Shown: positions 3,109 through 30,621 of the stretch, in pieces | How the letters are laid out: every line of letters begins with the position of its first letter | How positions within the stretch are numbered: the stretch's first letter is position 1 | Assembly: GCA_001552015.1 (NCBI GenBank) | Contig: CP010514.1 | Span: 573,888-605,887 of the forward strand | Direction: 5' to 3' | DNA length: 32,000 bases | From: Candidatus Nanopusillus acidilobi | Lineage (GTDB): Archaea; Nanobdellota; Nanobdellia; Nanobdellales; Nanobdellaceae | Position numbers and translations under genes: made by a program | The notes under the pieces: model-generated | Databases searched by the model: none | Told to the model about the DNA's origin: nothing | Seen by the model: only the letters and a program-made list of their open reading frames with translations

Positions 3109-4149
3109 ATGATCAAAATAAGAGAACAGATAAAGGATATAATAATTAATAATTATATTAAAGAAGGTAAAGATCCATTTGATTCTATAATTGGACAAGA
3201 AAATGCAAAGAGACAAATATTATCTTCATTAATTTCTGGAAGAAATATATTAATAATAGGGCCTCCAGGTACTGGAAAAACAACTTTAGCAAAAAATATA
3301 GCAAAATTACTACCAGAAATTGATTTTCCAGATGGAATTCCATTATGGGCTTATGAAGAATTTCCTTTTGTATCTGAAGAATATAGAAAAAAATGGAAAG
3401 AAGGTCCTTTTATAAAAATAAAGGGAGAAGATAGATTTATTAGAATACAGGGTTCTTATGATCTATCTGTAGAAGATCTGATTGGAGATATTGATCCTTC
3501 AAAAGCATTAAAATATGGTATACATTCTTTAGAATCTTTTATACCTGGAAAAATATTTAGAGCACACCATGGTGTATTATTTTTTGATGAAATAAATAGA
3601 GCACCTCCAAAGGTTCAAAATAGTTTATTAGAATTATTAGAAGAAAAGAAAATAACAATTGGGACATATGAATTTCAAATACCATTAGATATAATATTTA
3701 TTGCTACAATGAATCCTGAAAGTTATTACGGAACTGAAAAAATATCAGATGTATTATTAGATAGATTTGATATAATAAATTTAGATTATCCAAAAGATAT
3801 TGAAGAAGAAAAGAAGATTATATTAAAATATGGAAAAAATTTGAATGTTAATTTTCCTGAAAAATTATTGGAATTAACAATTGAATTTATACAAAAATTG
3901 AGAAAAGATGATAAATTAGAAAAGAAACCATCGGTTAGGTCTTCAATTGGTATTTATGAAAAAGCTCAGGCTTTGGCAATAATAGATAAAAAAGAAAATG
4001 TTGAAATTCAACATATATTTGAGGCTTTACTATCAATATTACCACATAGGATAAGATTAAAACCATCATATAAAATGGAAATAAATGAAGAAGAATATAT
4101 AAAAAAGGAGTGGAATTCTTTTATAATAGGGAAAGACTTTCGGAGTTGA
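3109..4149 (+). CDS. AAA+ ATPase, Mg-chelatase ChlI / MoxR-like
   Basis: Walker A is GPPGTGKTT and Walker B is VLFFDEINRA. The sensor region is IFIATMNPE...LLDRFD. It is paired with a downstream VWA protein. Confidence 0.8.
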   Translation: MIKIREQIKDIIINNYIKEGKDPFDSIIGQENAKRQILSSLISGRNILIIGPPGTGKTTLAKNIAKLLPEIDFPDGIPLWAYEEFPFVSEEYRKKWKEGPFIKIKGEDRFIRIQGSYDLSVEDLIGDIDPSKALKYGIHSLESFIPGKIFRAHHGVLFFDEINRAPPKVQNSLLELLEEKKITIGTYEFQIPLDIIFIATMNPESYYGTEKISDVLLDRFDIINLDYPKDIEEEKKIILKYGKNLNVNFPEKLLELTIEFIQKLRKDDKLEKKPSVRSSIGIYEKAQALAIIDKKENVEIQHIFEALLSILPHRIRLKPSYKMEINEEEYIKKEWNSFIIGKDFRS

Positions 4150-4237
4150 TTCAGAAAATTTAATAAGAAGACCTGGAGAATCATTTAAATATAGTTCAAA
4201 GGAAATTAAGAAAAATATAAATGAATTAATTGAAAAA

Positions 4238-5221
4238 ATGATAAAAGAAGGATATCCAATATTTGATATAGATAAAATTATGGAAAATAAAAAAGAATAT
4301 TCTGAGATATTATCAAAGCTAACTGAATATGATGAAAAAAGAATAAGAGAGGATAAGGATTATAGATTTAATAAAGAATTTAAGAAATCATTGAATAAAT
4401 TAAAGGAAATATTAACTAGTGAAGGATATATAGATGAAAATGGAGAATTAACTGAGAAATCTTTAATTGAATATTCTAAATATTTAATAGGAAATATAGA
4501 AAAGGAAATCGAAGGGATATTTGAATATGGAAAATATTTATCAAATTATATTGGAAATGATGAGGAATTTTATAATAAATATTTTAGTATAGGAGATAAA
4601 TATAATAAAATTGATATAAAAGAAACAATAAGAAATTATATAAAGAATAAAGAAGTTACAAGATTTGTTGTTAATGTTAAAAGAGAAAATAAAGGTGGTA
4701 AATATATAATTCTATTAGATGTATCTGGAAGTATGATTGGGGAAAAAATATTTGAAGCAAAAAAAGCTTTAATATTATTAATATCAAAGATATTAGAAGA
4801 TAATAATCTTTTAGATATAATATTATTTAATGATAAGATTGTTAAAGAATATGATAATGTTAGAGGATTAAAGGATATAATAGATATATTAAAAATTATA
4901 CCAAATGGAAGCACAGATATTGCCTTAGCATTTAATTATTTATTAAATAAAGAAGAAAATGGACATATAATATTAATAACCGATGCATTACCAACAAAGG
5001 GAAAAAATCCTGTAGAAAGAACTTTAAAGTTAGCTAAAGAATTAAGCCAATATTATTATATATCAATAATTGGAATACAATTAAATGATGAAGGAGAAAA
5101 AATTGCAAAGGAAATAGTAAAATATGGAAGAGGAAGATTATTTATTTCTAAAGATATAAAAGATTTGAAAAAACTATTATTATTAGAATACGAAATATCT
5201 AGACAACAGATGATAAAATAA
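4238..5221 (+). CDS. von Willebrand factor A (VWA) domain protein, partner of the AAA+ ATPase
   Basis: MIDAS motif ILLDVSGSM plus downstream GSTDI and ILITDALP. The frame is already open from 4130 without an ATG. Confidence 0.8.
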   Translation: MIKEGYPIFDIDKIMENKKEYSEILSKLTEYDEKRIREDKDYRFNKEFKKSLNKLKEILTSEGYIDENGELTEKSLIEYSKYLIGNIEKEIEGIFEYGKYLSNYIGNDEEFYNKYFSIGDKYNKIDIKETIRNYIKNKEVTRFVVNVKRENKGGKYIILLDVSGSMIGEKIFEAKKALILLISKILEDNNLLDIILFNDKIVKEYDNVRGLKDIIDILKIIPNGSTDIALAFNYLLNKEENGHIILITDALPTKGKNPVERTLKLAKELSQYYYISIIGIQLNDEGEKIAKEIVKYGRGRLFISKDIKDLKKLLLLEYEISRQQMIK

Positions 5222-11038: not shown

Positions 11039-11113
11039 TGCCCCCACCGGGATTTGAACCCGGGTCTCGGGGATGAGGACCCCGTATCCTGGACCTGACT
11101 AGACGACGGGGGC
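11039..11113 (-). tRNA. tRNA-Glu (nominal anticodon CUC), no encoded CCA
   Basis: The minus strand GCCCCCG-UC-GUCU...GGAU-A-CGGGG-UCCUCAU-CCCCG-AGAC-CCGGG-UUCAAAU-CCCGG-UGGGGGC-A folds as a cloverleaf. The discriminator A fits Glu. Loop position 33 is C rather than U. Confidence 0.85.
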
Positions 11114-11397
11114 TATGGATTATTTAATATATATTCAGAATTTTGAGTTATAACTATTATATTTGTTCCATTATCATAACATATCATATTCTCTTCTAAA
11201 CAAATATTGTAATATGTTTGATTTATAGTAGAAGAATAATTTGGATATAATAATAATTTAACATAAAAATCTTCTGCAATATATTTACCAATATTTGGTT
11301 GATAATAGAAATTATTTTGTAAATTTGAAATAAAAAATAATGTAATAAATAATATTAAAACTAAATATAATAAAATAAATTGGGATTTCATTTCCAA
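11113..11397 (-). CDS. Small secreted/membrane protein with an N-terminal hydrophobic helix (pilin-like), third gene of a three-gene operon
   Basis: MEMKSQFILLYLVLILFITLFFI is followed by an Asn/Tyr-rich domain with NYS, NQT and NGT sequons. It overlaps the upstream ORF by 10 nt. Confidence 0.5.
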   Translation of the reverse strand: MEMKSQFILLYLVLILFITLFFISNLQNNFYYQPNIGKYIAEDFYVKLLLYPNYSSTINQTYYNICLEENMICYDNGTNIIVITQNSEYILNNP

Positions 11398-11732
11398 TAT
11401 ATATCTACATAATCTACTGAGCCATTAATAATATAAAAAGTTTCAATTCCCTGTTCAGATTCATTTAAATTCGTATTATTAAATGCAACTTGTCCATTTA
11501 TTTCAACATAATAATATGGTAAAATATTTGTAACAATTTGATATAAACTACTGTTTAGCTGTTGTGTATTATTTAGATACATATAATTTATTGATATTAA
11601 TGATGCATATAGATCTTCTTTATTATACCCTCTAATATAGAAATTACTATAATATGTTGAAGTTAAAATAAAATATAAAACAATTATTACAACTACTAAT
11701 TCAATAAATATTGATATACTAAAAGATTTCAT
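11388..11732 (-). CDS. Type-IV-pilin-like small protein (class III signal peptide candidate)
   Basis: MKSFSISIFIELVVVIIVLYFIL has a short basic leader, then a hydrophobic helix containing Glu, as in prepilins. Five N-x-S/T sequons are present. Confidence 0.55.
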   Translation of the reverse strand: MKSFSISIFIELVVVIIVLYFILTSTYYSNFYIRGYNKEDLYASLISINYMYLNNTQQLNSSLYQIVTNILPYYYVEINGQVAFNNTNLNESEQGIETFYIINGSVDYVDIYWK

Positions 11733-12124
11733 TGAACTAATACACTAACCAAATATAATGAGCCATTATAATAGCAAACTCTATTAAATTCTATATAATT
11801 ATTTTGCATATTTGTTATATTATCATTACTAAATATATATTCTTGACTAGTATTACTTAAATTTTCATATATTATTTCATATGGAAAACTTGCTAAATTA
11901 TCCATTATACTTGGATTAAAATTATTTGATGTTAAATTACAAATATTGTCAGTATACTGTTCTGTAATTTCTTTAATCAAAACTCTTCCATCCATAAATT
12001 GATTATATATAATTTGATATTTTTCATTAATATTATAAATATAAGAAACTTTCTCCATTAATAATAATGTAATAAAAAATATTACTAAAACAATTACAAA
12101 TAGCTCAAAAAACCTATCTAGCAT
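11729..12124 (-). CDS. Type-IV-pilin-like small protein, first gene of the operon
   Basis: MLDRFFELFVIVLVIFFITLLL (FxEL + hydrophobic helix). Five sequons are present (NLT, NLS, NTS, NIT, NGS). It overlaps the next ORF at an ATGA junction. Confidence 0.5.
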   Translation of the reverse strand: MLDRFFELFVIVLVIFFITLLLMEKVSYIYNINEKYQIIYNQFMDGRVLIKEITEQYTDNICNLTSNNFNPSIMDNLASFPYEIIYENLSNTSQEYIFSNDNITNMQNNYIEFNRVCYYNGSLYLVSVLVQ

Positions 12125-14689: not shown

Positions 14690-17497
14690 TTAAGCAATTA
14701 TACATTCCGACCATCCACAATCCATACATACAACACAACCAGCTTCATGTTTTAATCTTGTAGATCCACATACAGGACATTTTTCAACTTTATTATTTCC
14801 ATTTTCTTCAACTTTTAATGTATTATCTTCAGCTCTTAATGTATTATTGATGTTTGCATTTAATTTTACTTTTGGTACTTCAACATTAGTAGTTAATTCA
14901 TAATACCAATTTGGTAACTTTATTCCATATTGCTTTAATATTTCAATCGTTCTATTATTTATTTTACCTTCTTTAATTAATCTAAAGTAATCCATAAATC
15001 TTGCTTTACTCGCCTCTGCAGGAGCTACATATACTTGTACAGATTTTGATCCATCTCTATATATTGTAATTCCTTTGCATCCCATCTTATATGCCAATAA
15101 ATATGAATAATATACATCATCTGGTTGAACCCAATTTGGCATATTTATTGTCTTTGATATTGATGTAGTTATCCATATTTGAGCAACTGCCTGTGCTCTT
15201 ATATGATCCCACCATGGTATATCTAATGCTGTTAAGAATATTGCTTTCAAATCATCTGGTATTTCTTTTATTCCCAATAAACTTCCCCCATTATCGGATA
15301 TTTTCTTTAATATATCATTATTATATAATCCTCTTTCCCTTAATTGTCTTTCCAATTCCTGATCTACATAATAATATACGCCAGCAGTTACTCTTTTTTC
15401 ATATACTAAAGAATATTGTGGTTCAATACCTGAAGATGTATCTGCTAACATGGATATAGAACCTGTTGGAGCAATTGATGTTACTTCAACATTTCTTATT
15501 CCATATTTTATTATTTGTTCTTTCAAATATTCCCAATCTAATGTCCATAATTCTTTATGATAATATCCTTCTACAGGTAATTCTCCATCTTTATATGTTG
15601 TTTGATCATATCTATCAAATTTACCCCTTGTTTTTGCTCTTTCAACAGATTCTAACATTGAATAATATGTTAAATATTCTGTTATTTTCATTAATAATTT
15701 ATATCCTTCTTCAGATGTATATGGAATTCCCAATGCATAGAATAAATCTGCTAATCCCATAAATCCAAGACCAACTCTTCTTACCAATTTTGAAGCTTCT
15801 TCAATTTCCTTTATTGGATATTTATTTACGTCTATTACATTATCTAAGAATCTATATGCCCATTTTATTGTTTCAATATATTTATTCCAATTAAATTCTG
15901 CTTTTCCATCTTTAAATTCAACCAAAGCATATAGATTAATTGATCCCAAATTACATGATTCATAAGGATATAGAGGCTGTTCTCCGCAAGGGTTACTGGC
16001 CCTAATTGGTCCTCTATATTTATATTGAACATTTCTTCTATTTATATTATCCATAAATAAACATCCTGGATCTCCTTTTTCCCATGCAACATATGAAGCT
16101 TCCTGTAATATTCTTTCGGGATTTACATATCCTGTAATTGTTTCTTTTGGTATTTTATTTATATCAAAATTTAGATCCCCTGGCAAAGGCAAATTATATT
16201 TCCTTAATAATCTTGGATTAATTAATGGATATTCTTTTTTATTTTCGAAATATTCCCAAAAAGATGGCTCGAACATTATAGATATATTGAAGTTTTCTAA
16301 TACACCTTCTTTTTCCTTTAAATGAATAAATTTAAATATTTCTGGATGCCAGGATTCCAAAATTCCCATGTTTGCCCCTCTTCTCTTTCCTCCTTGTTTT
16401 ACTACATCTGTAACTGTATCTATAATTTTCATAAATGAAACTGGACCTGAAGCAACACCCCCAGTAGATGCAACAACATCACCTTCAGGTCTTAGTTTTG
16501 AATAATTTATTCCAATTCCACCTCCAGATTTAAATATTAAAGCTGCTTCTGTTGCAGATTTCATTATAGATTCCATACTATCATCAATATCTAATACAAA
16601 ACATGCAGATAATTGTCCTAAAACAGCACCAGCATTAAATAATGTAGGAGAATTTGGCATAAATCTTTTACTTGCCATTAGATCATAATATTGATAGAAA
16701 TCTTCGTAATATTTGTCAAATTCGCCATTTTCTAGCATTTTTATAAATTCTGACCATGAAACCTTCATATGACCTCTTTCATTTAAATAATCATACAAAT
16801 ATTTCATTCTTTCTAAATGATATCTATTCCATCTAAATTTAGGATCTTTTATTGGTAATCCATATTTATTTTCGTTTTTTACAAAATCAAATTCTTCTTT
16901 TGTATGTACTTTTTGTTTTCCATCTTTATCATATATTCTTTCATCATATAATAAATCTGGTATTACAATTAATGCAGCAACCCTTTCAAACATTTGCTTT
17001 GGACCTTCTATTAGTTCCTTATATTCATTTCTTAATAAATATCTATTTACCATTAATCTAATTGAATTAACAGAAAATCTTTTTGCAACTTCTTCCTCAT
17101 AGAATTTTCCCAATAAATTTTTCTTTTCTTCTCTTATTTTTTCTTTTTCCTTTCTATAGGAAATATATGCCTTAGCAACATCATATAAATCAAATTTCAA
17201 TAAGGATAATTCGACAATATCTTGAATCTCTTCAACAGTTGGATATTTTATATCATCATATTTTTCTTCTAATACTTTTATTATATAGCCAACAACTTTT
17301 TCTAATTTTTCTTTATCATAAGCTCCAACAGCTTTCATTGCCCTTTCTATAGCATATTTTATTCTTTCTGGATCAAAGTCAACAATTCTTCCATCTCTTT
17401 TAATAACTTTTTTTATTTTATAATTATTTTGTCCCAAAACAACTTCTTTTTCTTTTTTTTCATGAGAATAGCTATTTATAAACTCTTCATCACCCAT
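14690..17497 (-). CDS. nrdJ: Class II (adenosylcobalamin-dependent) ribonucleotide reductase with N-terminal ATP-cone and C-terminal zinc ribbon
   Basis: The ATP-cone is VIKRDGRIVDFDPERIKYAIERA. The catalytic core is SNPCGEQPLYPYESCNLGSINL. The C-terminus is CPVCGS...CVVCMDCGWSEC. Confidence 0.95.
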   Translation of the reverse strand: MGDEEFINSYSHEKKEKEVVLGQNNYKIKKVIKRDGRIVDFDPERIKYAIERAMKAVGAYDKEKLEKVVGYIIKVLEEKYDDIKYPTVEEIQDIVELSLLKFDLYDVAKAYISYRKEKEKIREEKKNLLGKFYEEEVAKRFSVNSIRLMVNRYLLRNEYKELIEGPKQMFERVAALIVIPDLLYDERIYDKDGKQKVHTKEEFDFVKNENKYGLPIKDPKFRWNRYHLERMKYLYDYLNERGHMKVSWSEFIKMLENGEFDKYYEDFYQYYDLMASKRFMPNSPTLFNAGAVLGQLSACFVLDIDDSMESIMKSATEAALIFKSGGGIGINYSKLRPEGDVVASTGGVASGPVSFMKIIDTVTDVVKQGGKRRGANMGILESWHPEIFKFIHLKEKEGVLENFNISIMFEPSFWEYFENKKEYPLINPRLLRKYNLPLPGDLNFDINKIPKETITGYVNPERILQEASYVAWEKGDPGCLFMDNINRRNVQYKYRGPIRASNPCGEQPLYPYESCNLGSINLYALVEFKDGKAEFNWNKYIETIKWAYRFLDNVIDVNKYPIKEIEEASKLVRRVGLGFMGLADLFYALGIPYTSEEGYKLLMKITEYLTYYSMLESVERAKTRGKFDRYDQTTYKDGELPVEGYYHKELWTLDWEYLKEQIIKYGIRNVEVTSIAPTGSISMLADTSSGIEPQYSLVYEKRVTAGVYYYVDQELERQLRERGLYNNDILKKISDNGGSLLGIKEIPDDLKAIFLTALDIPWWDHIRAQAVAQIWITTSISKTINMPNWVQPDDVYYSYLLAYKMGCKGITIYRDGSKSVQVYVAPAEASKARFMDYFRLIKEGKINNRTIEILKQYGIKLPNWYYELTTNVEVPKVKLNANINNTLRAEDNTLKVEENGNNKVEKCPVCGSTRLKHEAGCVVCMDCGWSECIIA

Positions 17498-21477: not shown

Positions 21478-21508
21478 ATTTATATTTTTTAATAGATCAT
21501 AATTCTTA

Positions 21509-21990
21509 ATGAAAACTCAATTTGGAACAATTCTTGTAGAAATTATATTATTTATAGTTGCTGGTATTGCTGCTTATATATTTGTTTCTACTGCATATAA
21601 TAATTTAAATGGAATAAGCAATGCTGCAGTTGCAAATTCTAAATCATTACAAAATCAATTAAATACATATATTACATTAGATTCATGTGCATATAATAGT
21701 ACTACAAATTTATTATATTTCTATGTAACAAATAGAGGAAGTGTTTGTATTAAATCAAAATCTAACATTATTATTTATTAATGGAGAACTAATAAATAAT
21801 ACTCAAAATATATATTGCAAATAGTTATACTGGTACTTCTGCTTGGGGTCCATATGATACAATTGCAATTGTTACAAATATTTCTATAGTAACAAACTTT
21901 TATCAAGTAAGAATTGTAGCATCTACTGGGGCATATACAGAGAATACAATATATATTAATACAACTGCAAGTACATGTACAATAGAATGA
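21509..21990 (+). pseudogene. Archaellum FlaG/FlaF-like (archaellin-fold) protein interrupted by two +1 frameshifts
   Basis: Frame 2 gives MKTQFGTILVEIILFIVAGIAAYIF...YVTNRGSV. Frame 3 gives LNQNLTLLFINGELINNTQNIY. Frame 1 gives IANSYTGTSAWGPYDTIAIVTNISIVTNFYQVRIVASTGAYTENTIYINTTASTCTIE. Joined, they make a ~160-aa TM-helix plus beta-domain protein with the ...N.G...L....(F/V).(I/V)NG pattern. Confidence 0.45.
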
Positions 21991-22434
21991 GATCTGATTT
22001 AGGATCAATTATTGGAGCAATTATTGGATTCGTTATTTTTATTGTTTCTTCATCAGTTTTATATTTAATTTTAAATAATTATTATAAAAAACTTTTATTA
22101 TACGGCAAATTCAATAGATAATCAAATAAAAAATATTGTTGGAGAAAGTATAAAATTTTTAAATAATCAAACAAACTATTCAAATCCTTATTTAATTATA
22201 TATAATAATGGAAATAAGGCATTGGATTTATCATGTTTTCAATTATATGTTAATGGATATTTCTCTCCATTTAATTATTCTATAAATTATTTATATTCAT
22301 CAAATTTATTATTGCCTGGAGAAAATGCAACAATATATTTTAATAATAATTATTTAGTAAATAATTCATGGAATTATATAATATTGGTATCTTGTTATGG
22401 GGTTAAGTTTCAAACTTTAATATATGCTAATTAA
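21987..22434 (+). pseudogene. Archaellum FlaF/FlaG-like protein interrupted by one frameshift in an A6 run
   Basis: MRSDLGSIIGAIIGFVIFIVSSSVLYLILNNYYKK stops 10 codons after the A-run at 22086-22091. The next frame continues FYYTANSIDNQIKNIVGESIKFLNN...YNNGNKALDLSCFQLYVNGYF...IYAN. The start overlaps the preceding stop (ATGA). Confidence 0.5.
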
Positions 22435-22444
22435 TTAATATAAT

Positions 22445-24055
22445 ATGAGATTACAATCTGAAATGATTATAGCATTAATATTGTTAATAGTAGGAGCTCT
22501 TGCTACTGTAATAATATACAATATAATATCTCCAAATTTAAATATAATAAATCCTTCTGGACAGGAAATTTCAAGATCTTTAGAATTAAATTTCCAATTA
22601 TTAGATTATTTTATAGTAAATAATACATTATATGCATATGTAAAACCCTCAGAACCAGTTAATTATTCTCAAGTATTTGCAATTTTAAATGATAGATTAG
22701 TTAATGTTTATCCTTATAATTCAAATGGATCAATTGTAAATCCATATAATAATGGTTTATTAATTGTTGTTGCAAATTTATCTCAAATTCCTCCAGATCA
22801 AAATGGAAATTATAAATTAGAAGTTGGATTAGAAAATGATATAATTGGAGTATTTGATATAAAATATATTTCTAATTCATTAATTAATTATTTTCAACCT
22901 CCAATTGTTTTTAATATATCGGTCATATCAACCTCCCTTACATGTCAATTACCATATTTACCTTTAATATTATACAATAGTCAATCTATTCCAACTCCTT
23001 CTCCTTTTCAACAGGATATTGCAATATGTAATGGAACAATTAATATTGGTAATAGTTTTGCATATGTAAATAATGCAACATTATTTAATGAAATAAATAG
23101 AAATGGATCTAATGTATACTTTACAACAACCTGTAATAGTACCCCAAATATATATTCATGGTATGAAGGTCAATTAATTAATGGAAGTACATATTGTGAT
23201 GTTTGGTGGATAAATTTATCTAATGGAATTCCTGCTAATTCAAATATTACAATATATATGTATATAGGAAATAGTAGTGATAATTATTATTCCCAATATT
23301 ATCCATATGTTGGTACTTCTCCTCAAGTAATTTCAGGATATGATAATGGTCAAGATGTATTTATAGCATATGGATATTTTAACAATACATTTGATGGATG
23401 GAGTAGATATGTTTATTCAGGATCATTTTCTCCAACAGCAACTTCAAATGGTATTGAAATGATAAATAATAATGGTGGTGAAGGTACATATATTTTACCT
23501 CCAAATAATGAAAATATTCCAGAAATACCTTTAATTGTTGAAGAAGCCTGGTATCATACTCAAAGTGCAGATGCAAATACTATATCCTTATTTGGAAATA
23601 CAAATAGTCAGGTAGATGTAACTAATATAGGAGGTACAGACGGTGGTTCCACACCAGCATCTAGTTCATCTACATTTGTACAATTTGAATATTATGGTGG
23701 ACAACCATATGTTATGTTAAAATCTGCAGTAACAGATCAATATTTAAGTTATACATCTTTCCCAACATCTGGTGGAACTGTTTATTCATATTTAATAGTT
23801 AATTCTACATATGCACAAACAGGATATTATATTTATAATTCTAATCAAGTATGGGCTCCTTTAACATTATTAGATACATATAATATAAATTATAATGGAT
23901 ATACATATTATAATTTAAATTATAATCCTTTCCAATATGGTACATTAGAAATTGGTGCAGGAACTGGTGGAGCTGCTTCATACCAATATGAAGAATGGGT
24001 TGTTGCTAGAGCATATCCTCCAAATGGTGTAATGCCTTCAATTTATATTGGTTAA
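22445..24055 (+). CDS. Large pilin-anchored surface protein: N-terminal hydrophobic pilin/archaellin-like segment plus DUF2341-like plus ConA/LamG-like lectin domain
   Basis: The N-terminus is MRLQSEMIIALILLIVGALATVIIYN. The middle segment ...NVYFTT...YSWYEG...CDVWWINLSNGIPANSNITIYMYIGNSS resembles the DUF2341 signature (..YWIE...VWVKVP.IPA...IYMYYGN). The C-terminus ...FDGW...YEEWVVARAYPPNG resembles the lectin-fold tail of such proteins. N-x-S/T sequons are very dense. Confidence 0.6.
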   Translation: MRLQSEMIIALILLIVGALATVIIYNIISPNLNIINPSGQEISRSLELNFQLLDYFIVNNTLYAYVKPSEPVNYSQVFAILNDRLVNVYPYNSNGSIVNPYNNGLLIVVANLSQIPPDQNGNYKLEVGLENDIIGVFDIKYISNSLINYFQPPIVFNISVISTSLTCQLPYLPLILYNSQSIPTPSPFQQDIAICNGTINIGNSFAYVNNATLFNEINRNGSNVYFTTTCNSTPNIYSWYEGQLINGSTYCDVWWINLSNGIPANSNITIYMYIGNSSDNYYSQYYPYVGTSPQVISGYDNGQDVFIAYGYFNNTFDGWSRYVYSGSFSPTATSNGIEMINNNGGEGTYILPPNNENIPEIPLIVEEAWYHTQSADANTISLFGNTNSQVDVTNIGGTDGGSTPASSSSTFVQFEYYGGQPYVMLKSAVTDQYLSYTSFPTSGGTVYSYLIVNSTYAQTGYYIYNSNQVWAPLTLLDTYNINYNGYTYYNLNYNPFQYGTLEIGAGTGGAASYQYEEWVVARAYPPNGVMPSIYIG

Positions 24056-24081: not shown

Positions 24082-24154
24082 GGTCCGGGTAGCCTAGTGG
24101 TAAGGCGTCGGGCTGTGGACCCGAAGATCGCGGGTTCGAATCCCGCCCCGGACC
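24082..24154 (+). tRNA. tRNA-His (GUG) with genomically encoded G-1
   Basis: G-1 is followed by GUCCGGG, which pairs with CCCGGAC, and G-1 sits opposite C73. The anticodon loop is CUGUGGA and the T arm is GCGGG-UUCGAAU-CCCGC. Confidence 0.95.
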
Positions 24155-25087
24155 CTAATGAGTTTCCCAGCCAACAGTTTTTTCAAATCCTAAAATTTTC
24201 TTAATATAACTTTCTAACAATAATTTTTCTTTATTTGTTATTTTACATAAATTATGGGCCATTTTTAATCCTCTTGGATAAGATTTCTGATCATAAATAA
24301 CTTCTTTTATTATTTCTTTAAATTTTTCTTTTCCAATTTTTTCCATTCCTTCTAATCTATATATATGATCATTATATCTTGCCCTAAAGTATATTAAATA
24401 TAAATTTTTGTTACAAAATGGACAATTTGGAATTTTTGAACCTAAAAATTCTTTTATTTGTTTTTCTTTAATATCTGTATAAAATATTTCTGATGGAAAA
24501 ATTCTCATCAATGTTAGTAAATCTGATCTACCTGTTTTTATTATATCTAAATTTAATATTCTCTTTGCAACTGCCAATAAATTTCCATTATTTATTAAAT
24601 ATTCAAAGTTTTCTAAAAATTCTTTTCTTCTATTTTCAACATTCTCATCATAAAAATTATACAGAAATTTTGAATATAATATGGAATCTGATATTATTGA
24701 TCCATCTATAAATATATATCTATCAGAATATTTTCTTGCCAATCTATATTCTAAATTTTTTGATAATAATTCTGAAATATCTTGAATGTCGAAATTTTCA
24801 TTATTCATCGATCTTATAAAAGATGTTTCGAAAAATTCTATATCTTCTATACTTTCATATATATCATCAGAAACAATTACTGCTCTTGAATATACATAAC
24901 TATAAGGTCCGACAATACCATTTACAAGAGAAGAGTCTATAAATCCATATTTTTTCTTTTCTTTTATCTCAATATTATCCAAATCTAATTTTTCAATATT
25001 AATTTTTTCTTCCTTATTATTTTCTTCATCTTTTTTTATTTGATTGATTTTTTGATTTATCTTTTCTAATAAATTTTTTGTTAACAT
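24155..25087 (-). CDS. nurA: NurA-domain 5'-3' nuclease (DNA end-resection)
   Basis: YGFIDSS and IFIDGSI are the two Asp-containing NurA motifs, followed by LAVAKR and a C-terminal MAHN. The stop codon abuts the 3' end of tRNA-His. Confidence 0.6.
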   Translation of the reverse strand: MLTKNLLEKINQKINQIKKDEENNKEEKINIEKLDLDNIEIKEKKKYGFIDSSLVNGIVGPYSYVYSRAVIVSDDIYESIEDIEFFETSFIRSMNNENFDIQDISELLSKNLEYRLARKYSDRYIFIDGSIISDSILYSKFLYNFYDENVENRRKEFLENFEYLINNGNLLAVAKRILNLDIIKTGRSDLLTLMRIFPSEIFYTDIKEKQIKEFLGSKIPNCPFCNKNLYLIYFRARYNDHIYRLEGMEKIGKEKFKEIIKEVIYDQKSYPRGLKMAHNLCKITNKEKLLLESYIKKILGFEKTVGWETH

Positions 25088-25408: not shown

Positions 25409-26215
25409 ATGGTCATGACAACAATAAAAGATACATTTCAAAAGGCTACGAATCCATTTCGTAAAGCAATAGATGATAGATGGCAGTATCTTTCAGATGA
25501 CGATAGAAGAGAAATAGCAAGATATCTAGCAGATAAGAAAGATATAATAGAACGTTACTTTTATACTATCAATAAGAATAATAGTGATAAAGTACTAGAT
25601 TCTATTGAACAATTTGCACGTCTTAAAGGATCTTCTATAGATCTACCTACTATATCTCAGTATTTTGATATGCTAGAAAACCTTGATAAAATAATAGAAG
25701 AAATAGATAAAGGTTTCTTCAATTCTTTACCCAAATATAATAATGTAGTAAAACCAAACAACTATTATATGGAAATCGCATTTGACATAGATGGAAATCC
25801 AAAAGATCAAAAAGGAACTTTAGTTGATATATTAAAAAAGCTAATAGGAAACGTCGGAGCTAGAGGTTATCCTATATCTTATTATAACGGAACTGACAAC
25901 TTTCCAATACAATATTATATGGAATTCTATCCAGATCGAACTCACATAAGAATTTTCATTCATACATCCTATATACCCCCAGCTATAGTAGGTTATTTAC
26001 TTTATGAGCTAAACAATATTAAAGGAAAAGAATCAATAATACCTCCAAGCGGACAACAATATCATATTATTAATAATGTAGCAGGAATTATTAATAATCG
26101 CATAGGAATAGACATAGATCAACGTATAGCTTCTTATGCCGGCCAAGCTCTTTGGCAATATAGTTTCTTATATAGATTTTTTAGGGTAGAAGAAATTCCG
26201 TATTGGATTACTTAA
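25409..26215 (+). CDS. Orphan 268-aa protein with atypical (foreign-looking) codon usage
   Basis: A long ORF flanked by 136-nt and 181-nt noncoding spacers. Six in-frame CGN Arg codons occur (25460, 25553, 25619, 25937, 26099, 26123), whereas Arg elsewhere in the window is almost always AGA/AGG. Acidic motifs are IAFDIDGNP and IGIDIDQRI. Confidence 0.6.
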   Translation: MVMTTIKDTFQKATNPFRKAIDDRWQYLSDDDRREIARYLADKKDIIERYFYTINKNNSDKVLDSIEQFARLKGSSIDLPTISQYFDMLENLDKIIEEIDKGFFNSLPKYNNVVKPNNYYMEIAFDIDGNPKDQKGTLVDILKKLIGNVGARGYPISYYNGTDNFPIQYYMEFYPDRTHIRIFIHTSYIPPAIVGYLLYELNNIKGKESIIPPSGQQYHIINNVAGIINNRIGIDIDQRIASYAGQALWQYSFLYRFFRVEEIPYWIT

Positions 26216-26396: not shown

Positions 26397-28388
26397 ATGA
26401 CAGATCATTTTAAAGCAATATTTAAAACAGATCTTAATAGAAATCTCAATTTTACTGAAGAAACTATTGAAATTTTAGATAATAAAATTTCCATATATGA
26501 TGATAATAAAAACAAAATATTAGAAATCGATAATGTAGAAGAACTAAATATAGAATATGGAATAAGTATATGTAAATTAATTGCAATAGACAAAGATGGA
26601 AAAATATTTGAAGTTGCATATTTTACAAAGAAAAAAGCGGATAATATACAAAAAATTGTAGATGAATTTAATTTAAAAGTAAAAACGGAAATAATTGAAA
26701 AAGAAGAAAAGAAAAGATCTAAAAAAGAAATATATGGATTTTTAATACAAATTATTAAAAAATATAAGAAAGAACTTATCTTAATTACTATTATCTTTAT
26801 TATAGGTACTATAATAAGTCTAATTCCTCCTTATTTAACAGCTTTATTAATAAACGAGGTTCTTATATCAAAAATACCATCACTGGAAGTATTTCTTACA
26901 ATAATTTTCTTAATGCTAATATCTTCTATTATTTCTAGATTTTCATATTTAATAGGTAATTCTTTATTAAATATTACACAGACAAAAATCAGAAAGGGAA
27001 TAAGAGAGTTATTATTAGAACATATAATTTTTAATGATGTTTCTTTTATAGAAAAATACTCTCCTTCTACATTAATAGCAAGATATCAAACGGATATAGA
27101 GGAAATAGATGGTTTTATTGCATTTGATCTGCCTTTTATAATTATAGATACTTTAATGCTTGTTGGGACCCTTATTATACTTTTTTTATTATTACCATTT
27201 TTAGCAATACCTATAATAATTGCAGCATTTGTTATTTTTGTTCTTTTCATAATTTATGAAAGAAAAATTAGAAGAATTGATAAAAAAGCAAGAATAAAGT
27301 CTGTAGATGCCGAAACTCAAGTAAATAATGTTCTAAGGAACTTTTATAGCATTAAGTTATTCTCAAAAGAAAAAGAAGAATATGAAAAAACAAAAAATAT
27401 AATAAACTCTTGGTATTCGACAGATACTCAGGTAGGAAAACTTATTACAATAAGAGGTGAACTATTATTTTTAATAATAGATTTGATTACTGTTTTTATA
27501 TGGTATATGGGTGGAATTTTTGTAATTAATAATCTAATTAAATTGGGTATATTGGTTGCTTTTGTAACTTATATTTTATATATTTATAGCCCACTCCAGA
27601 CATATGAAAGGTTTTTTGGGGATATTCCAAAAGCTTTAGTTTCTGCTGAAAGAATATTAGAATTATTAGAAGATAAGCCAAAAATATTAAATAAAGAAAA
27701 TGCTTTAAAACCAAATATGATTGATGAAATAAAATTTGTTAATGTTACTTTTGGATATGAACCAGGTTTTCCTGTATTAAAAAATATTTCTTTTACAATA
27801 AAACCTAAAGAAAAGGTTGCAATTGTTGGAAAAAATGGAGCTGGAAAGACAACAATTGCTAAATTATTATTAAGATTTTATGACATAAATGATGGAGAAA
27901 TATTAATTGGAAATACAAATATAAAAGATATAGATTTAAAATATCTTAGGGAAAAAATTTCATATTTATCACAAGAACCTGAAATTTTTAATAATACTAT
28001 TAGATACAATATATCTTATGGAAATCAAAATGCAAATGAAATAGAAATAATTAGAGTTTGCAAAATTGTAAATATACATGATGATATAATTAAATTACCT
28101 TTTGCATATGATACCCCAGCAGGAGAAGAGGGAACAAAACTATCTAGCGGCCAAAAACAAAAAATAACAATTGCAAGAAATATAATAAAAAATCCTGATA
28201 TATTTATATTTGATGAATTAACATCAAATATTGATTCAAAGAGCAGAGAACAAATTTTTTCTGCTATATTAAATATTTCAAAAGATAAAACTTTAATATA
28301 TATTTCACATAATTTATCGGAAGTATTAAATATGGATAGAGTTATTGTTATAGAAGACGGAAAAATTGTTGAAGAAGGAAAAACCTGA
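26397..28388 (+). CDS. ABC exporter, fused TMD-NBD (MsbA/MdlB type) with an extra ~110-aa N-terminal soluble domain; 3' end displaced by a frameshift
   Basis: Six TM segments are present. Walker A is GKNGAGKTT, the signature is LSSGQKQKITIARN, Walker B is IFIFDELTSNID and the H-loop is ISHN. The normal C-terminal ...DDLIKKKGKFYELFKNQ is encoded in the next frame. Confidence 0.9.
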   Translation: MTDHFKAIFKTDLNRNLNFTEETIEILDNKISIYDDNKNKILEIDNVEELNIEYGISICKLIAIDKDGKIFEVAYFTKKKADNIQKIVDEFNLKVKTEIIEKEEKKRSKKEIYGFLIQIIKKYKKELILITIIFIIGTIISLIPPYLTALLINEVLISKIPSLEVFLTIIFLMLISSIISRFSYLIGNSLLNITQTKIRKGIRELLLEHIIFNDVSFIEKYSPSTLIARYQTDIEEIDGFIAFDLPFIIIDTLMLVGTLIILFLLLPFLAIPIIIAAFVIFVLFIIYERKIRRIDKKARIKSVDAETQVNNVLRNFYSIKLFSKEKEEYEKTKNIINSWYSTDTQVGKLITIRGELLFLIIDLITVFIWYMGGIFVINNLIKLGILVAFVTYILYIYSPLQTYERFFGDIPKALVSAERILELLEDKPKILNKENALKPNMIDEIKFVNVTFGYEPGFPVLKNISFTIKPKEKVAIVGKNGAGKTTIAKLLLRFYDINDGEILIGNTNIKDIDLKYLREKISYLSQEPEIFNNTIRYNISYGNQNANEIEIIRVCKIVNIHDDIIKLPFAYDTPAGEEGTKLSSGQKQKITIARNIIKNPDIFIFDELTSNIDSKSREQIFSAILNISKDKTLIYISHNLSEVLNMDRVIVIEDGKIVEEGKT

Positions 28389-30258: not shown

Positions 30259-30621
30259 TATTCTCCTAGAACTTTAAATCCTAATTCTTTTGCCATTTCT
30301 CTAAAGCATCTTCCGCATATGTAATATATTATATCTCCTAATAACTCTATCATGAGAACCGCATATCATACATCTTATACTTCCTTTTCCAAATTTTCTT
30401 TCCTTATTTTTAATTCCATATTCTTCTAATACTTTTATTAAACTTTTATTTTCACTTACGGCTTTTTGTATTAATTCTTGTATATTCTTAATCTTACCTT
30501 CTTTAATTAGTCTTCTTACTTCTTCCTTTATATATTTTGGTGCATTATTTTTGAGTATCTTTGCTAAAGTACCTGATTTGTTTTTCTGTAATTCTACTAA
30601 ATATGACCAATCATTTGGCAT
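30258..30621 (-). CDS. rps14p: Ribosomal protein uS14 (zinc-ribbon type) with a ~70-aa N-terminal extension and an internal single-base frameshift
   Basis: RKFGKGSIRCMICGSHDRVIRRYNI is followed in the annotated frame by LHMRKML*. The adjacent frame reads ICGRCFREMAKELGFKVLGE*, supplying the second CxxC and the S14 tail. It ends in TAATG overlapping the uS8 start. Confidence 0.8.

Follow-up and report, generated by a model that had tools for sequence, protein, structure and literature searches.

A modular lectin-headed protein encoded next to an ArlF/ArlG-like gene pair in Candidatus Nanopusillus acidilobi, a candidate for host attachment

The lectin module of PilC from Streptococcus sanguinis binds host glycans, and PilC has been modelled together with PilA and other minor pilins as a tip complex (PMC9934059). 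Archaeal DUF2341 proteins (arCOG03508) were predicted to be type IV pilus tip adhesins by analogy with PilY1, and in Desulfurococcus they are encoded beside two genes of the 'Pilin, FlaG/FlaF/PilA family' (Makarova, Koonin and Albers 2016, PMC4858521). Here, gene C (Nps_03430) of Candidatus Nanopusillus acidilobi, a tiny cultivated hot-spring ectosymbiont of Acidilobus sp. 7A (PMC4935971), is compared with these and related systems. Gene C lies downstream of two small ArlF/ArlG-like genes, A and B, in a stretch of 32,000 nucleotides (nt) with a G + C content of about 23% (contig CP010514.1, positions 573,888 to 605,887), called the window in the following, to which coordinates refer unless a contig is named. 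It encodes a protein with a DUF2341-type middle domain and a lectin-fold head, and it belongs to a multi-copy family in which the heads are of mosaic ancestry.

For the archaellum, ArlF is described as a cap that binds the surface layer (S-layer) on an ArlG filament, which sets a precedent for an envelope-spanning, S-layer-contacting assembly (PMC4425475; PMC8667602). The Sulfolobus bindosome consists of sugar-binding proteins that carry class III signal peptides and are assembled by BasABC/BasEF with small pilin-like helpers (PMC3047682). The lectin-like proteins MJ1_0179 of Nanobdella and LC1Nh_0399-401 of Nanohalobium were proposed for specific host recognition, and Kato et al. described MJ1_0772 and MJ1_0773, which are orthologous to A and B, as resembling archaellins (bioRxiv 10.1101/2023.10.27.564410). 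The first-pass annotation of this locus, made by a model from the sequence alone, knew of no described system with this gene combination, which is too strong a statement in view of PilA/PilC, the archaeal DUF2341 proteins and the lectin-like proteins of Nanobdella.

The product of the open reading frame (ORF) at 22445-24055 on the plus strand is identical to AMD30064.1, annotated as 'hypothetical protein Nps_03430' of Candidatus Nanopusillus acidilobi, and a 90-amino-acid (aa) ORF at 21509 is identical to Nps_03420 from the same closed genome of 605,887 bp. Length, strand and distance to the preceding FlaF-like gene agree with the first-pass annotation. The architecture was derived from two AlphaFold 2 (AF2) models, with confidence given as the predicted local distance difference test (pLDDT), and comprises the following parts:

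22445 to 24055, plus strand: gene C (Nps_03430, AMD30064.1), intact, encoding a 536-aa modular putative surface protein
22448 to 22528, plus strand: aa 2-28, hydrophobic helix after MRLQSE (AF2, end at 28 or 32; comparison of family N-termini)
22592 to 22864, plus strand: aa 50-140, N-domain beta-sandwich, specific to the copy at this locus (AF2, pLDDT 80-89)
aa 143-165: disordered linker (AF2)
22955 to 23278, plus strand: aa 171-278, conserved middle beta domain with the motifs FQQDIAIC and CDVWW, overlapping the DUF2341 match (pLDDT 75-88)
23279 to 23359, plus strand: aa 279-305, low-confidence junction with the invariant motifs YPYVG and YDNG
23360 to 24013, plus strand: aa 306-523, head with ConA/L-type-lectin fold, beta-sandwich (pLDDT about 90; Foldseek)
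24014 to 24052, plus strand: aa 524-536, invariant C-terminal tail (R)AYPPNGVMPSIYIG

The ConA-like C-terminal domain proposed in the first-pass annotation was recovered by structure comparison. Searched with Foldseek against the Protein Data Bank (PDB), the head matches ERGIC-53 (E 6e-8, probability 1.0, target template modelling (TM) score 0.6-0.7 over about 250 columns), and further fold matches include VIP36, legume lectins and the legume-lectin domain 7elv of M. jannaschii, with target TM scores of 0.55-0.70 overall. A total of 107 PDB fold matches have E <= 0.001, and the top 50 listed are all L-type lectins. According to an entropy map, the variation within the head type found in the window is concentrated in six hypervariable loops between conserved strands (about aa 320-327, 339-346, 371-377, 390-403, 416-423 and 506-512).

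The proposed DUF2341 segment holds at the level of the family, whereas the score of the protein itself stays below the threshold: gene C matches the profile PF10102 at aa 234-278 with E 0.44, and its 11.5 bits fall short of the cutoff of 23.4. Among the family members, 12 of 53 match DUF2341 (E <= 0.1), the best with 2e-7 and above the cutoff, and member P0074 passes PF10102 with 31.8 bits. Distant homologues found by the family profile also pass (P0205 with 36.4 bits, P0193 with 28.4 bits), so that gene C is assigned to DUF2341 by transitive homology via its relatives and not by its own score. The family profile search returned 1,245 representative proteins (579 at E <= 1e-10), which match mainly at positions 165-345 or 165-540. 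The inspected members look like archaeal surface proteins: one starts with a pilin-type N-terminus, the others with Sec signals, and C-terminal anchors, Laminin_G_3 domains and PKD/Ig repeats are found among them. The motifs PFQQ, YDNG and R.YPPNG.MPS are common to this superfamily, and the tail (R)AYPPNGVMPSIYIG is also present in distant proteins with the DUF2341 module. The middle domain and head are therefore regarded as a widespread extracellular DUF2341/ConA-like module.

At the N-terminus, a basic residue is followed by the hydrophobic helix, and the MRLQSE motif is conserved. The helix may serve as a membrane anchor, or it may correspond to the alpha-1 helix of type IV filament proteins. 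The beta-rich region that had been noted behind it is found in the models as the beta domain at aa 50-140. With Foldseek, the N-terminal 305 aa gave weak matches only, none with E <= 0.001; the non-antibody matches were the archaellin 9eq7 of H. salinarum (E 4e-3) and FlaF 4p94 of S. acidocaldarius (E 2.5e-2), both with probability 1.0 and with target TM scores of 0.43-0.50 (0.50 for FlaF).

The protein is poor in lysine (0.7% vs. 7-18% in other window proteins, those encoded around gene C being lysine-rich), and Asn, Ser, Thr and Tyr add up to 39% of its residues. It contains 15 N-X-S/T sequons, that is 2.8 per 100 aa compared to 0.54 in 19 other window proteins, or about five times as many. 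The first-pass description as extremely rich in sequons is thus right in number, but the excess is mostly compositional, because shuffling of the protein's own composition gives nearly as many (10.1 +/- 2.8 expected, p = 0.06). Eight of the 15 are located in the middle domain and two in the lectin head, and for seven of the 15 the sequon Asn is conserved to at least 90%. The low lysine content, the richness in Asn, Ser, Thr and Tyr, the sequon density relative to the neighbours and the conserved sequon Asn residues are in favour of an extracellular protein.

A genome scan for the gene C family yielded 79 loci, nearly all in Nanopusillaceae and many at contig ends, with 4-9 loci per genome and 6 each in the closed genomes of strain YN1 and Nanobdella aerobiophila MJ1; within the 32-kb window there is no second member. 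The family uses different anchors, namely the MRLQSE type, the canonical archaeal pilin type, Sec-signal types and a transmembrane type. Canonical pilin-type proteins, which start with MKSISPIIASILIIV (MKSISPII...), are the commonest paralogues; Pilin_N is matched by 11 and Arch_flagellin by 6 of 53 family members, and members with a Sec signal lack the N-domain. The anchor proposed for gene C in the first-pass annotation is therefore to be read with care: helix, beta-sandwich and linkage to an ArlF/ArlG-like pair are real, but the protein is not a canonical pilin and represents one of several anchor variants. MJ1_0179 was not among the loci recovered by the scan and may thus be a lectin-like protein different from the gene C family.

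Anchor, middle domain and head have different histories. Most proteins with this type of N-domain are 85-97% identical to gene C in that part, the two most distant ones 64-77% and paralogues about 27%, and the middle domain is 62-93% identical across all family members. Head identity amounts to 90% in two close relatives and to 62-76% in most orthologues. In seven proteins, including Nst1_194 and a protein from an N. acidilobi metagenome-assembled genome (MAG), the heads are just 29-36% identical despite N-domains that are 91-97% identical; P0041 and P0111 are examples of this combination (N-domains 92-97% identical). Conversely, heads 73-88% identical to that of gene C occur on paralogues with other anchors (88% for P0021 and P0028). 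The window-type head was found with every anchor type and the MRLQSE anchor with at least seven head clusters.

The same pattern is seen at the nucleotide level. In comparisons with syntenic orthologues, the N-domain is 90-97% identical, this value drops to 41-62% at about aa 326-425, and the entire head cannot be aligned with that of Nst1. Identity to the syntenic orthologues begins to fall in the junction at aa 279-305, which is a candidate recombination boundary. The synonymous divergence (dS) of the head was 0.53 and 0.36 against the relatives L004 and L008 compared to 0.16 and 0.12 for the N-domain, about a threefold difference; overall ranges were 0.36-0.53 for the head and 0.12-0.30 for the N-domain. 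The raised dS of the head is as expected for recombination with diverged copies and not for faster point substitution alone. The ratio of non-synonymous to synonymous divergence (dN/dS) of the head is 0.3-0.57 vs. 0.04-0.14 in flanking genes. With respect to L004, neighbouring genes are 93-97% identical and gene C 75%.

Some family members show further rearrangements. In the gene C orthologues of MJ1 (L047 4001-5968) and YN1 (L046 4001-5614), the conserved middle domain is interrupted by about 210 additional aa. This domain is encoded once more in MJ1 by the next-but-one gene (L047 7237-8220), which by locus numbering is probably MJ1_0776, a 'pectin lyase-like' surface protein of Kato et al.; the module would therefore carry non-lectin heads too. 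The Sec-signal paralogue P0107 is located about 2 kb from a T2SSF/T2SSE pair (pilus platform and ATPase) and two small ORFs (L089 3421-6568), which hints at a link of some family members to a non-archaellar type IV pilus system.

The genes and elements around gene C are the following:

21479 to 21484, plus strand: TTTATA, possible archaeal TATA box 25-30 nt before the start codon of gene A, read from the sequence
21509 to 21990, plus strand: gene A, ArlF/ArlG family, N-terminal transmembrane helix and archaellin-type beta domain, 159 aa when repaired
21987 to 22434, plus strand: gene B, second ArlF/ArlG-like gene, transmembrane helix and beta domain, 148 aa when repaired
24083 to 24155, plus strand: tRNA-His, 28 nt past the stop codon of gene C, downstream boundary of the A-B-C unit

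The reading frames of A and B share 4 nt, and gene C starts 10 nt past the stop codon of B on the same strand (22434 to 22445). The TTTATA hexamer is weak evidence for a TATA box of gene A in a genome with 23% G + C; a comparable space is found neither ahead of gene B nor ahead of gene C. In relatives, intact copies of A and B are found in the same order, GatE - A B C - (tRNA-His) NurA. The first-pass annotation had named the absence of the three-gene arrangement from relatives, like a lack of lectin-fold or DUF2341 similarity, as a refutation of its reading, and none of the three applies, DUF2341 similarity being found at the family level. It is kept in Nanopusillus MAGs and metagenome contigs, in Nanobsidianus stetteri Nst1 and in strain YN1, also in Nanobdella aerobiophila MJ1 and in the deeper Nanopusillaceae MAG KM4331-16, so that every Nanopusillaceae genome examined has A-B-C. 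Across the syntenic relatives, A is 68-96% and the N-domain of gene C 57-92% identical. Since even the archaellum genes are dispersed in these genomes, the maintained order argues for co-expression of A, B and C and for a functional link between them.

The assignment of the upstream genes as FlaG/FlaF-like was confirmed at the family level. Repaired gene A passes the Pfam profile Arch_flagellin (E 3e-10, 41 bits vs. 29.5), and its L004 orthologue matches the NCBIfam profiles ArlF (NF052590; 2e-14, 53.8 bits) and ArlG (NF052591; 5e-9, 36.2 bits), while the L004 orthologue of B matches ArlF with 5e-4 and 20.4 bits. All these scores are below the equivalog cutoff of NCBIfam (110 bits), though the alignments cover the full profiles. 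On sequence grounds A and B are thus family-level relatives of ArlF/ArlG with unconfirmed equivalog status, and the assignment to F or G is ambiguous. PDB sequence searches with A and B did not find the FlaF/FlaG chains. The original N. acidilobi authors listed Nps_03420 as 'putative archaeal flagellar protein G' (arCOG01822), and its orthologues are annotated as FlaF/FlaG family by the Joint Genome Institute. In earlier genome papers, the archaellum genes listed for the relative Nst1 include FlaF and FlaG, and the 2016 census gives a single copy of each (PMC4858521). No arl or type IV pilus machinery gene is present in the 32-kb window, and A and B are not part of an arl operon with arlB/H/I/J. 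As a test of stator identity this location is weak, because scattered arl genes are the rule in these genomes (in N. acidilobi Nps_00925-00940, Nps_01995/02010 and Nps_02340).

Both upstream genes are interrupted in the assembly, which had been overlooked in the first-pass annotation. Gene A contains two +1 insertions (TT to TTT near 21744 and AAA to AAAA near 21805) and gene B one (AAAAA to AAAAAA near 22086), which were located by alignment with intact relatives and repaired by deletion of the three bases; the 90-aa fragment of the broken gene A is the annotated Nps_03420. Repaired A and B are 96% identical to intact orthologues and show dN/dS values of 0.13-0.22 and 0.06-0.13, respectively, and gene B is intact in all relatives examined. 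Comparable breaks are found elsewhere in the window. A fusion of ATP-binding cassette (ABC) transporter and DUF1854 domains at 28382, which has 854-856 aa in relatives, is split here into pieces of 663 and 198 aa, an A run having gained one base, and the gene for ribosomal protein S14 at 30323 is frameshifted relative to L004. Each of the four indels inspected at the base level adds one base to an A/T homopolymer, and MiSeq and PacBio RS II data were combined in a hybrid assembly. As the ABC gene and S14 are also split, the assembly includes PacBio data and A and B are under strong purifying selection, the frameshifts in A and B are read as assembly errors, which is very probable in our judgement. 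Together with the three insertions in A and B, these two breaks point to homopolymer errors that remain in the published N. acidilobi assembly.

Of the described systems, PilC/PilA is by analogy the closest characterised counterpart of gene C. PilC likewise combines a filament-type helix or small pilin moiety, an Ig-like domain and a ConA-like lectin module in the same order, with small pilin-like partner genes adjacent. It differs in being bacterial, in having a canonical class III signal peptide cut by prepilin peptidase and in belonging to a complete pil locus, and its lectin module was compared by the authors with galectin (human Gal-7), whereas the head of gene C best matches L-type lectins. 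Gene C in turn has ArlF/ArlG-like partners, a non-canonical cleavage motif, no nearby assembly genes and a recombining multi-copy head. Taken as a modular pilin, gene C has the grafted Ig-like and lectin modules and the small partner genes, combined with a non-canonical pilin moiety.

The archaeal arCOG03508 proteins (PMC4858521) share with gene C the extracellular DUF2341/ConA-clan modules, and the tested members of the superfamily defined by middle domain and head (>1,200 representatives) match DUF2341 as they do. With about 860-880 aa they are longer, are described as surface or S-layer-like proteins and not as pilins, and lie in loci with ATPase/TadC genes. In gene C, by contrast, the module is fused to a filament-type N-terminal anchor and adjoins an arlF/arlG-type pair. 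MJ1_0179 and LC1Nh_0399-401 resemble gene C in their N-terminal transmembrane helix, Ig-like fold, legume/ConA-like lectin domain and many N-glycosylation sites; Kato et al. draw no link from MJ1_0772/0773 to the downstream gene, and the family, its paralogy and the shuffling of heads are not described there. The ArlF/ArlG stator (PMC4425475; PMC8667602) shares the helix and archaellin-type beta-sandwich with A and B and, weakly, with the N-module of gene C. Canonical ArlF and ArlG have about 150 aa and no extra domains and are encoded inside the arl operon, whereas A and B are isolated from arlB/H/I/J, score below the equivalog cutoffs and are followed by a 536-aa lectin-headed protein. The bindosome (PMC3047682) is an archaeal precedent for carbohydrate-binding proteins that have pilin-type N-termini and are placed at the envelope; its proteins, however, are substrate-binding proteins of ABC transporters for sugar uptake and not of lectin fold, and gene C has neither a linked ABC uptake partner nor a Bas ATPase. 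What appears to be new is the conserved coupling to an arlF/arlG-type pair, the use of multiple anchors and the shuffling of heads.

Taken together, we tentatively favour, at slightly less than an even chance, that gene C encodes a modular surface protein which grips host glycans via a swappable lectin head and acts together with A and B. Its product would be exported, probably N-glycosylated and located at the cell surface, and would consist of a type-IV-filament-family anchor (hydrophobic helix and small beta-sandwich), a conserved DUF2341-type stalk domain and a ConA/L-type-lectin-fold head with hypervariable loops. Gene C would most likely be co-transcribed with A and B, and the three proteins could form a short complex across the envelope that holds the lectin head at the S-layer or outside it. 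The ligands of the head would be glycans, most probably those of the glycosylated S-layer of the host archaeon, and binding to them would contribute to host recognition and attachment. Exchange of heads by recombination among family copies on different anchors would diversify the binding specificity. Host S-layer glycans are a plausible target: the surface of the Acidilobus host is labelled by the lectins ConA and DBA (Dolichos biflorus agglutinin), and that of N. acidilobi by wheat germ agglutinin (WGA) (PMC4935971). The fast diversification of the head sequence fits a role in host interaction. Nanoarchaeotal surface proteins show an excess of non-synonymous single-nucleotide polymorphisms in natural populations (PMC6142677), and host specificity is strict.

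Several observations weigh against this explanation. The N-terminus of gene C had been called pilin/archaellin-type; the hydrophobic helix is there, but MRLQSEMIIALILL has Leu or Gln/Ser where Gly, Ala or Ser is expected at position -1 of a class III signal peptide, and neither Pilin_N nor Arch_flagellin matches the protein. In hhalign, the N-module of gene C aligns with the gene A family at P 6e-6, a signal that depends on the helix and drops to P 0.009 when the transmembrane helices are removed, which also weakens the alignment of A with B; sequence homology of the beta domains of gene C and gene A was therefore dropped and is not claimed. A PDB sequence search with the family profile gave a low-complexity match only (E = 3). 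The first-pass annotation had named positive selection across relatives as a point to compare, and it was dropped, since domain-wise Nei-Gojobori dN/dS values of gene C average below 1 everywhere (0.2-0.57); the claim made here is accordingly one of elevated rates and mosaic ancestry. The three paralogues whose context was checked (P0118, P0058 and P0107) stand alone among housekeeping genes, away from arlF/arlG, so that the head module is independent of A and B. If the frameshifts in A and B were real, gene C would have to work without them in this strain. Finally, Nps_03430 is missing from the published proteome, in which A, B and C are all undetected. This absence was rejected as a sign of non-expression, because gene C has only 10 Lys and Arg residues along with many sequons and its absence is thus uninformative; the authors of the proteome gave the same reason for the missing S-layer protein.

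The main rival to host adhesion is a self-anchoring accessory of the archaellum, in which A and B would be the ArlF/ArlG stator and C a third member that extends or replaces the cap role of ArlF, its head binding the cell's own S-layer without direct host contact. Bar one divergent 'FlaG paralogue' (arCOG03871), A and B are indeed the ArlF/ArlG-type pair of these genomes and were counted as archaellum FlaF/FlaG by earlier studies. ArlF binds the S-layer, ArlG is modelled as a filament spanning the pseudoperiplasm (PMC4425475; PMC8667602), the A-B-C synteny is strict and the surface of N. acidilobi is itself glycosylated, as seen by WGA labelling. An anchor to the own S-layer should however be conserved, whereas the head is mosaic and differs by up to 70% among strains with neighbouring genes that are 93-97% identical, and the same head sits on pilin, Sec-signal and transmembrane anchors, where checked apart from arlF/arlG. 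Free Nanobdella cells with archaellum-like filaments are non-motile, which makes a motility-only role doubtful, and overall the self-anchoring accessory is considered unlikely. We think it similarly improbable that the three proteins form the tip complex of a non-archaellar type IV pilus, with A and B as minor pilins and C as a modular minor pilin like PilA/PilB/PilC of S. sanguinis, for which a layout of pilin, Ig-like and lectin parts with a small stabilising partner (PilC/PilA) is established. Nanoarchaeota have several sets of type IV pilus ATPase/TadC genes, the pilins of which were not identified there (PMC4858521; PMC6142677), in the pilus loci of Desulfurococcus a DUF2341 surface protein is encoded next to two genes of the 'Pilin, FlaG/FlaF/PilA family', and within the gene C family the commonest paralogues have canonical pilin N-termini (MKSISPIIASILIIV) that match Pilin_N or Arch_flagellin and one Sec-type paralogue is found 2 kb from a T2SSE/T2SSF pair. 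What speaks against such a tip complex is that A and B score as ArlF/ArlG and not as Pilin_N and were taken by earlier authors for archaellum FlaF/FlaG, that none of A, B and C has the canonical [KR][GAS] cleavage motif, and that the window is devoid of pilus machinery genes.

A role other than adhesion, with the ConA-like domain as a glycan-degrading enzyme that remodels the host envelope or with C as a structural S-layer-associated glycoprotein, is very unlikely in our view. The top 50 listed fold matches are lectins or cargo receptors without any glycoside hydrolase, the GH16-type motif ExDxxE was not found on inspection of the gene C sequence, and a conserved scaffold with hypervariable loops is the pattern expected for specific binding more than for catalysis. 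Still, the ConA-like fold is common to lectins and glucanases (also lyases), the module is shared by a large superfamily of surface proteins in archaea, which have C-terminal anchors as well as PKD, Ig and Laminin_G_3 domains, the repeated middle domain of Nanobdella is part of the probable 'pectin lyase-like' protein proposed to degrade the host wall, and the conserved acidic motifs IVEEAWY and ADAN are kept in distant homologues. Decay would explain the locus differently, with the frameshifts of A and B as real pseudogenisation in the laboratory co-culture and a module that is non-functional in this strain. Three frameshifts fall within the 0.93 kb of A and B and none in the 1.6 kb of gene C, and the proteome lacks all three products. 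Against this stand the four inspected indels, all of the +1 homopolymer kind, the frameshifts that also split the ABC transporter and the essential S14 gene, the PacBio RS II/MiSeq hybrid assembly, and the identity and dN/dS values (0.06-0.22) of the repaired genes, which give no sign of relaxed selection; the pseudogene reading was rejected as the principal one and is given a low probability.

For the preferred explanation, host attachment via a swappable lectin head, a more far-reaching version can be formulated, which we regard as improbable at present: Nanopusillaceae would have turned the S-layer-anchoring ArlF/ArlG pair into a host-grabbing device by adding a third filament-type subunit with a lectin head that projects through the envelope, and a genomic pool of 4-9 head cassettes on different anchors (ArlF/G-linked, canonical pilin or secreted) would be shuffled by recombination. 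If this holds true, strains that are otherwise 93-97% identical should show different glycan specificities, and the locus would be part of a cassette-based system for host range or immune evasion in an archaeal ectosymbiont. Should the link to ArlF/ArlG be functional, stator-type components of the archaellum would have been re-used for adhesion. On the way in which nanoarchaeal and other DPANN ectosymbionts recognise a specific host and stay attached to it, the published pointers have so far been general, such as 'hypothetical external proteins' with excess non-synonymous variation and lectin-like proteins. A concrete family can now be named in two cultivated systems, N. acidilobi/Acidilobus 7A and Nanobdella aerobiophila/Metallosphaera sedula, and it offers defined domain boundaries, a conserved arlF/arlG-like partner pair and head swapping as a measurable signature.

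Further observations were made elsewhere in the window. A 268-aa ORF at 25409-26215 on the plus strand, two genes downstream of C, is 45% identical to its syntenic orthologue in L004 and is thus a second very fast-evolving gene near C among neighbours that are 93-97% identical; NCBIfam scans of this ORF and of the small minus-strand ORFs gave no match. A MinD/ParA-type ATPase is encoded at 1190-1945 and a MoxR-type AAA+/VWA pair at 3109-5221; both lie apart from the A-B-C unit, with which no connection was found. The region 11113-12124 on the minus strand contains three small overlapping ORFs (131, 114 and 94 aa) with a hydrophobic N-terminal helix and many N-X-S/T motifs. They match neither Pfam nor NCBIfam and could form another group of pilin-like or minor-subunit proteins. 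The ribonucleotide reductase at 14690-17497 on the minus strand has 935 aa compared to 1,299-1,300 aa in syntenic relatives, where Intein_splicing and LAGLIDADG domains are present and where blastn reveals about 1.1 kb that is missing from the window. The gene therefore looks like an intein-free allele, though the published gene table lists an intein.

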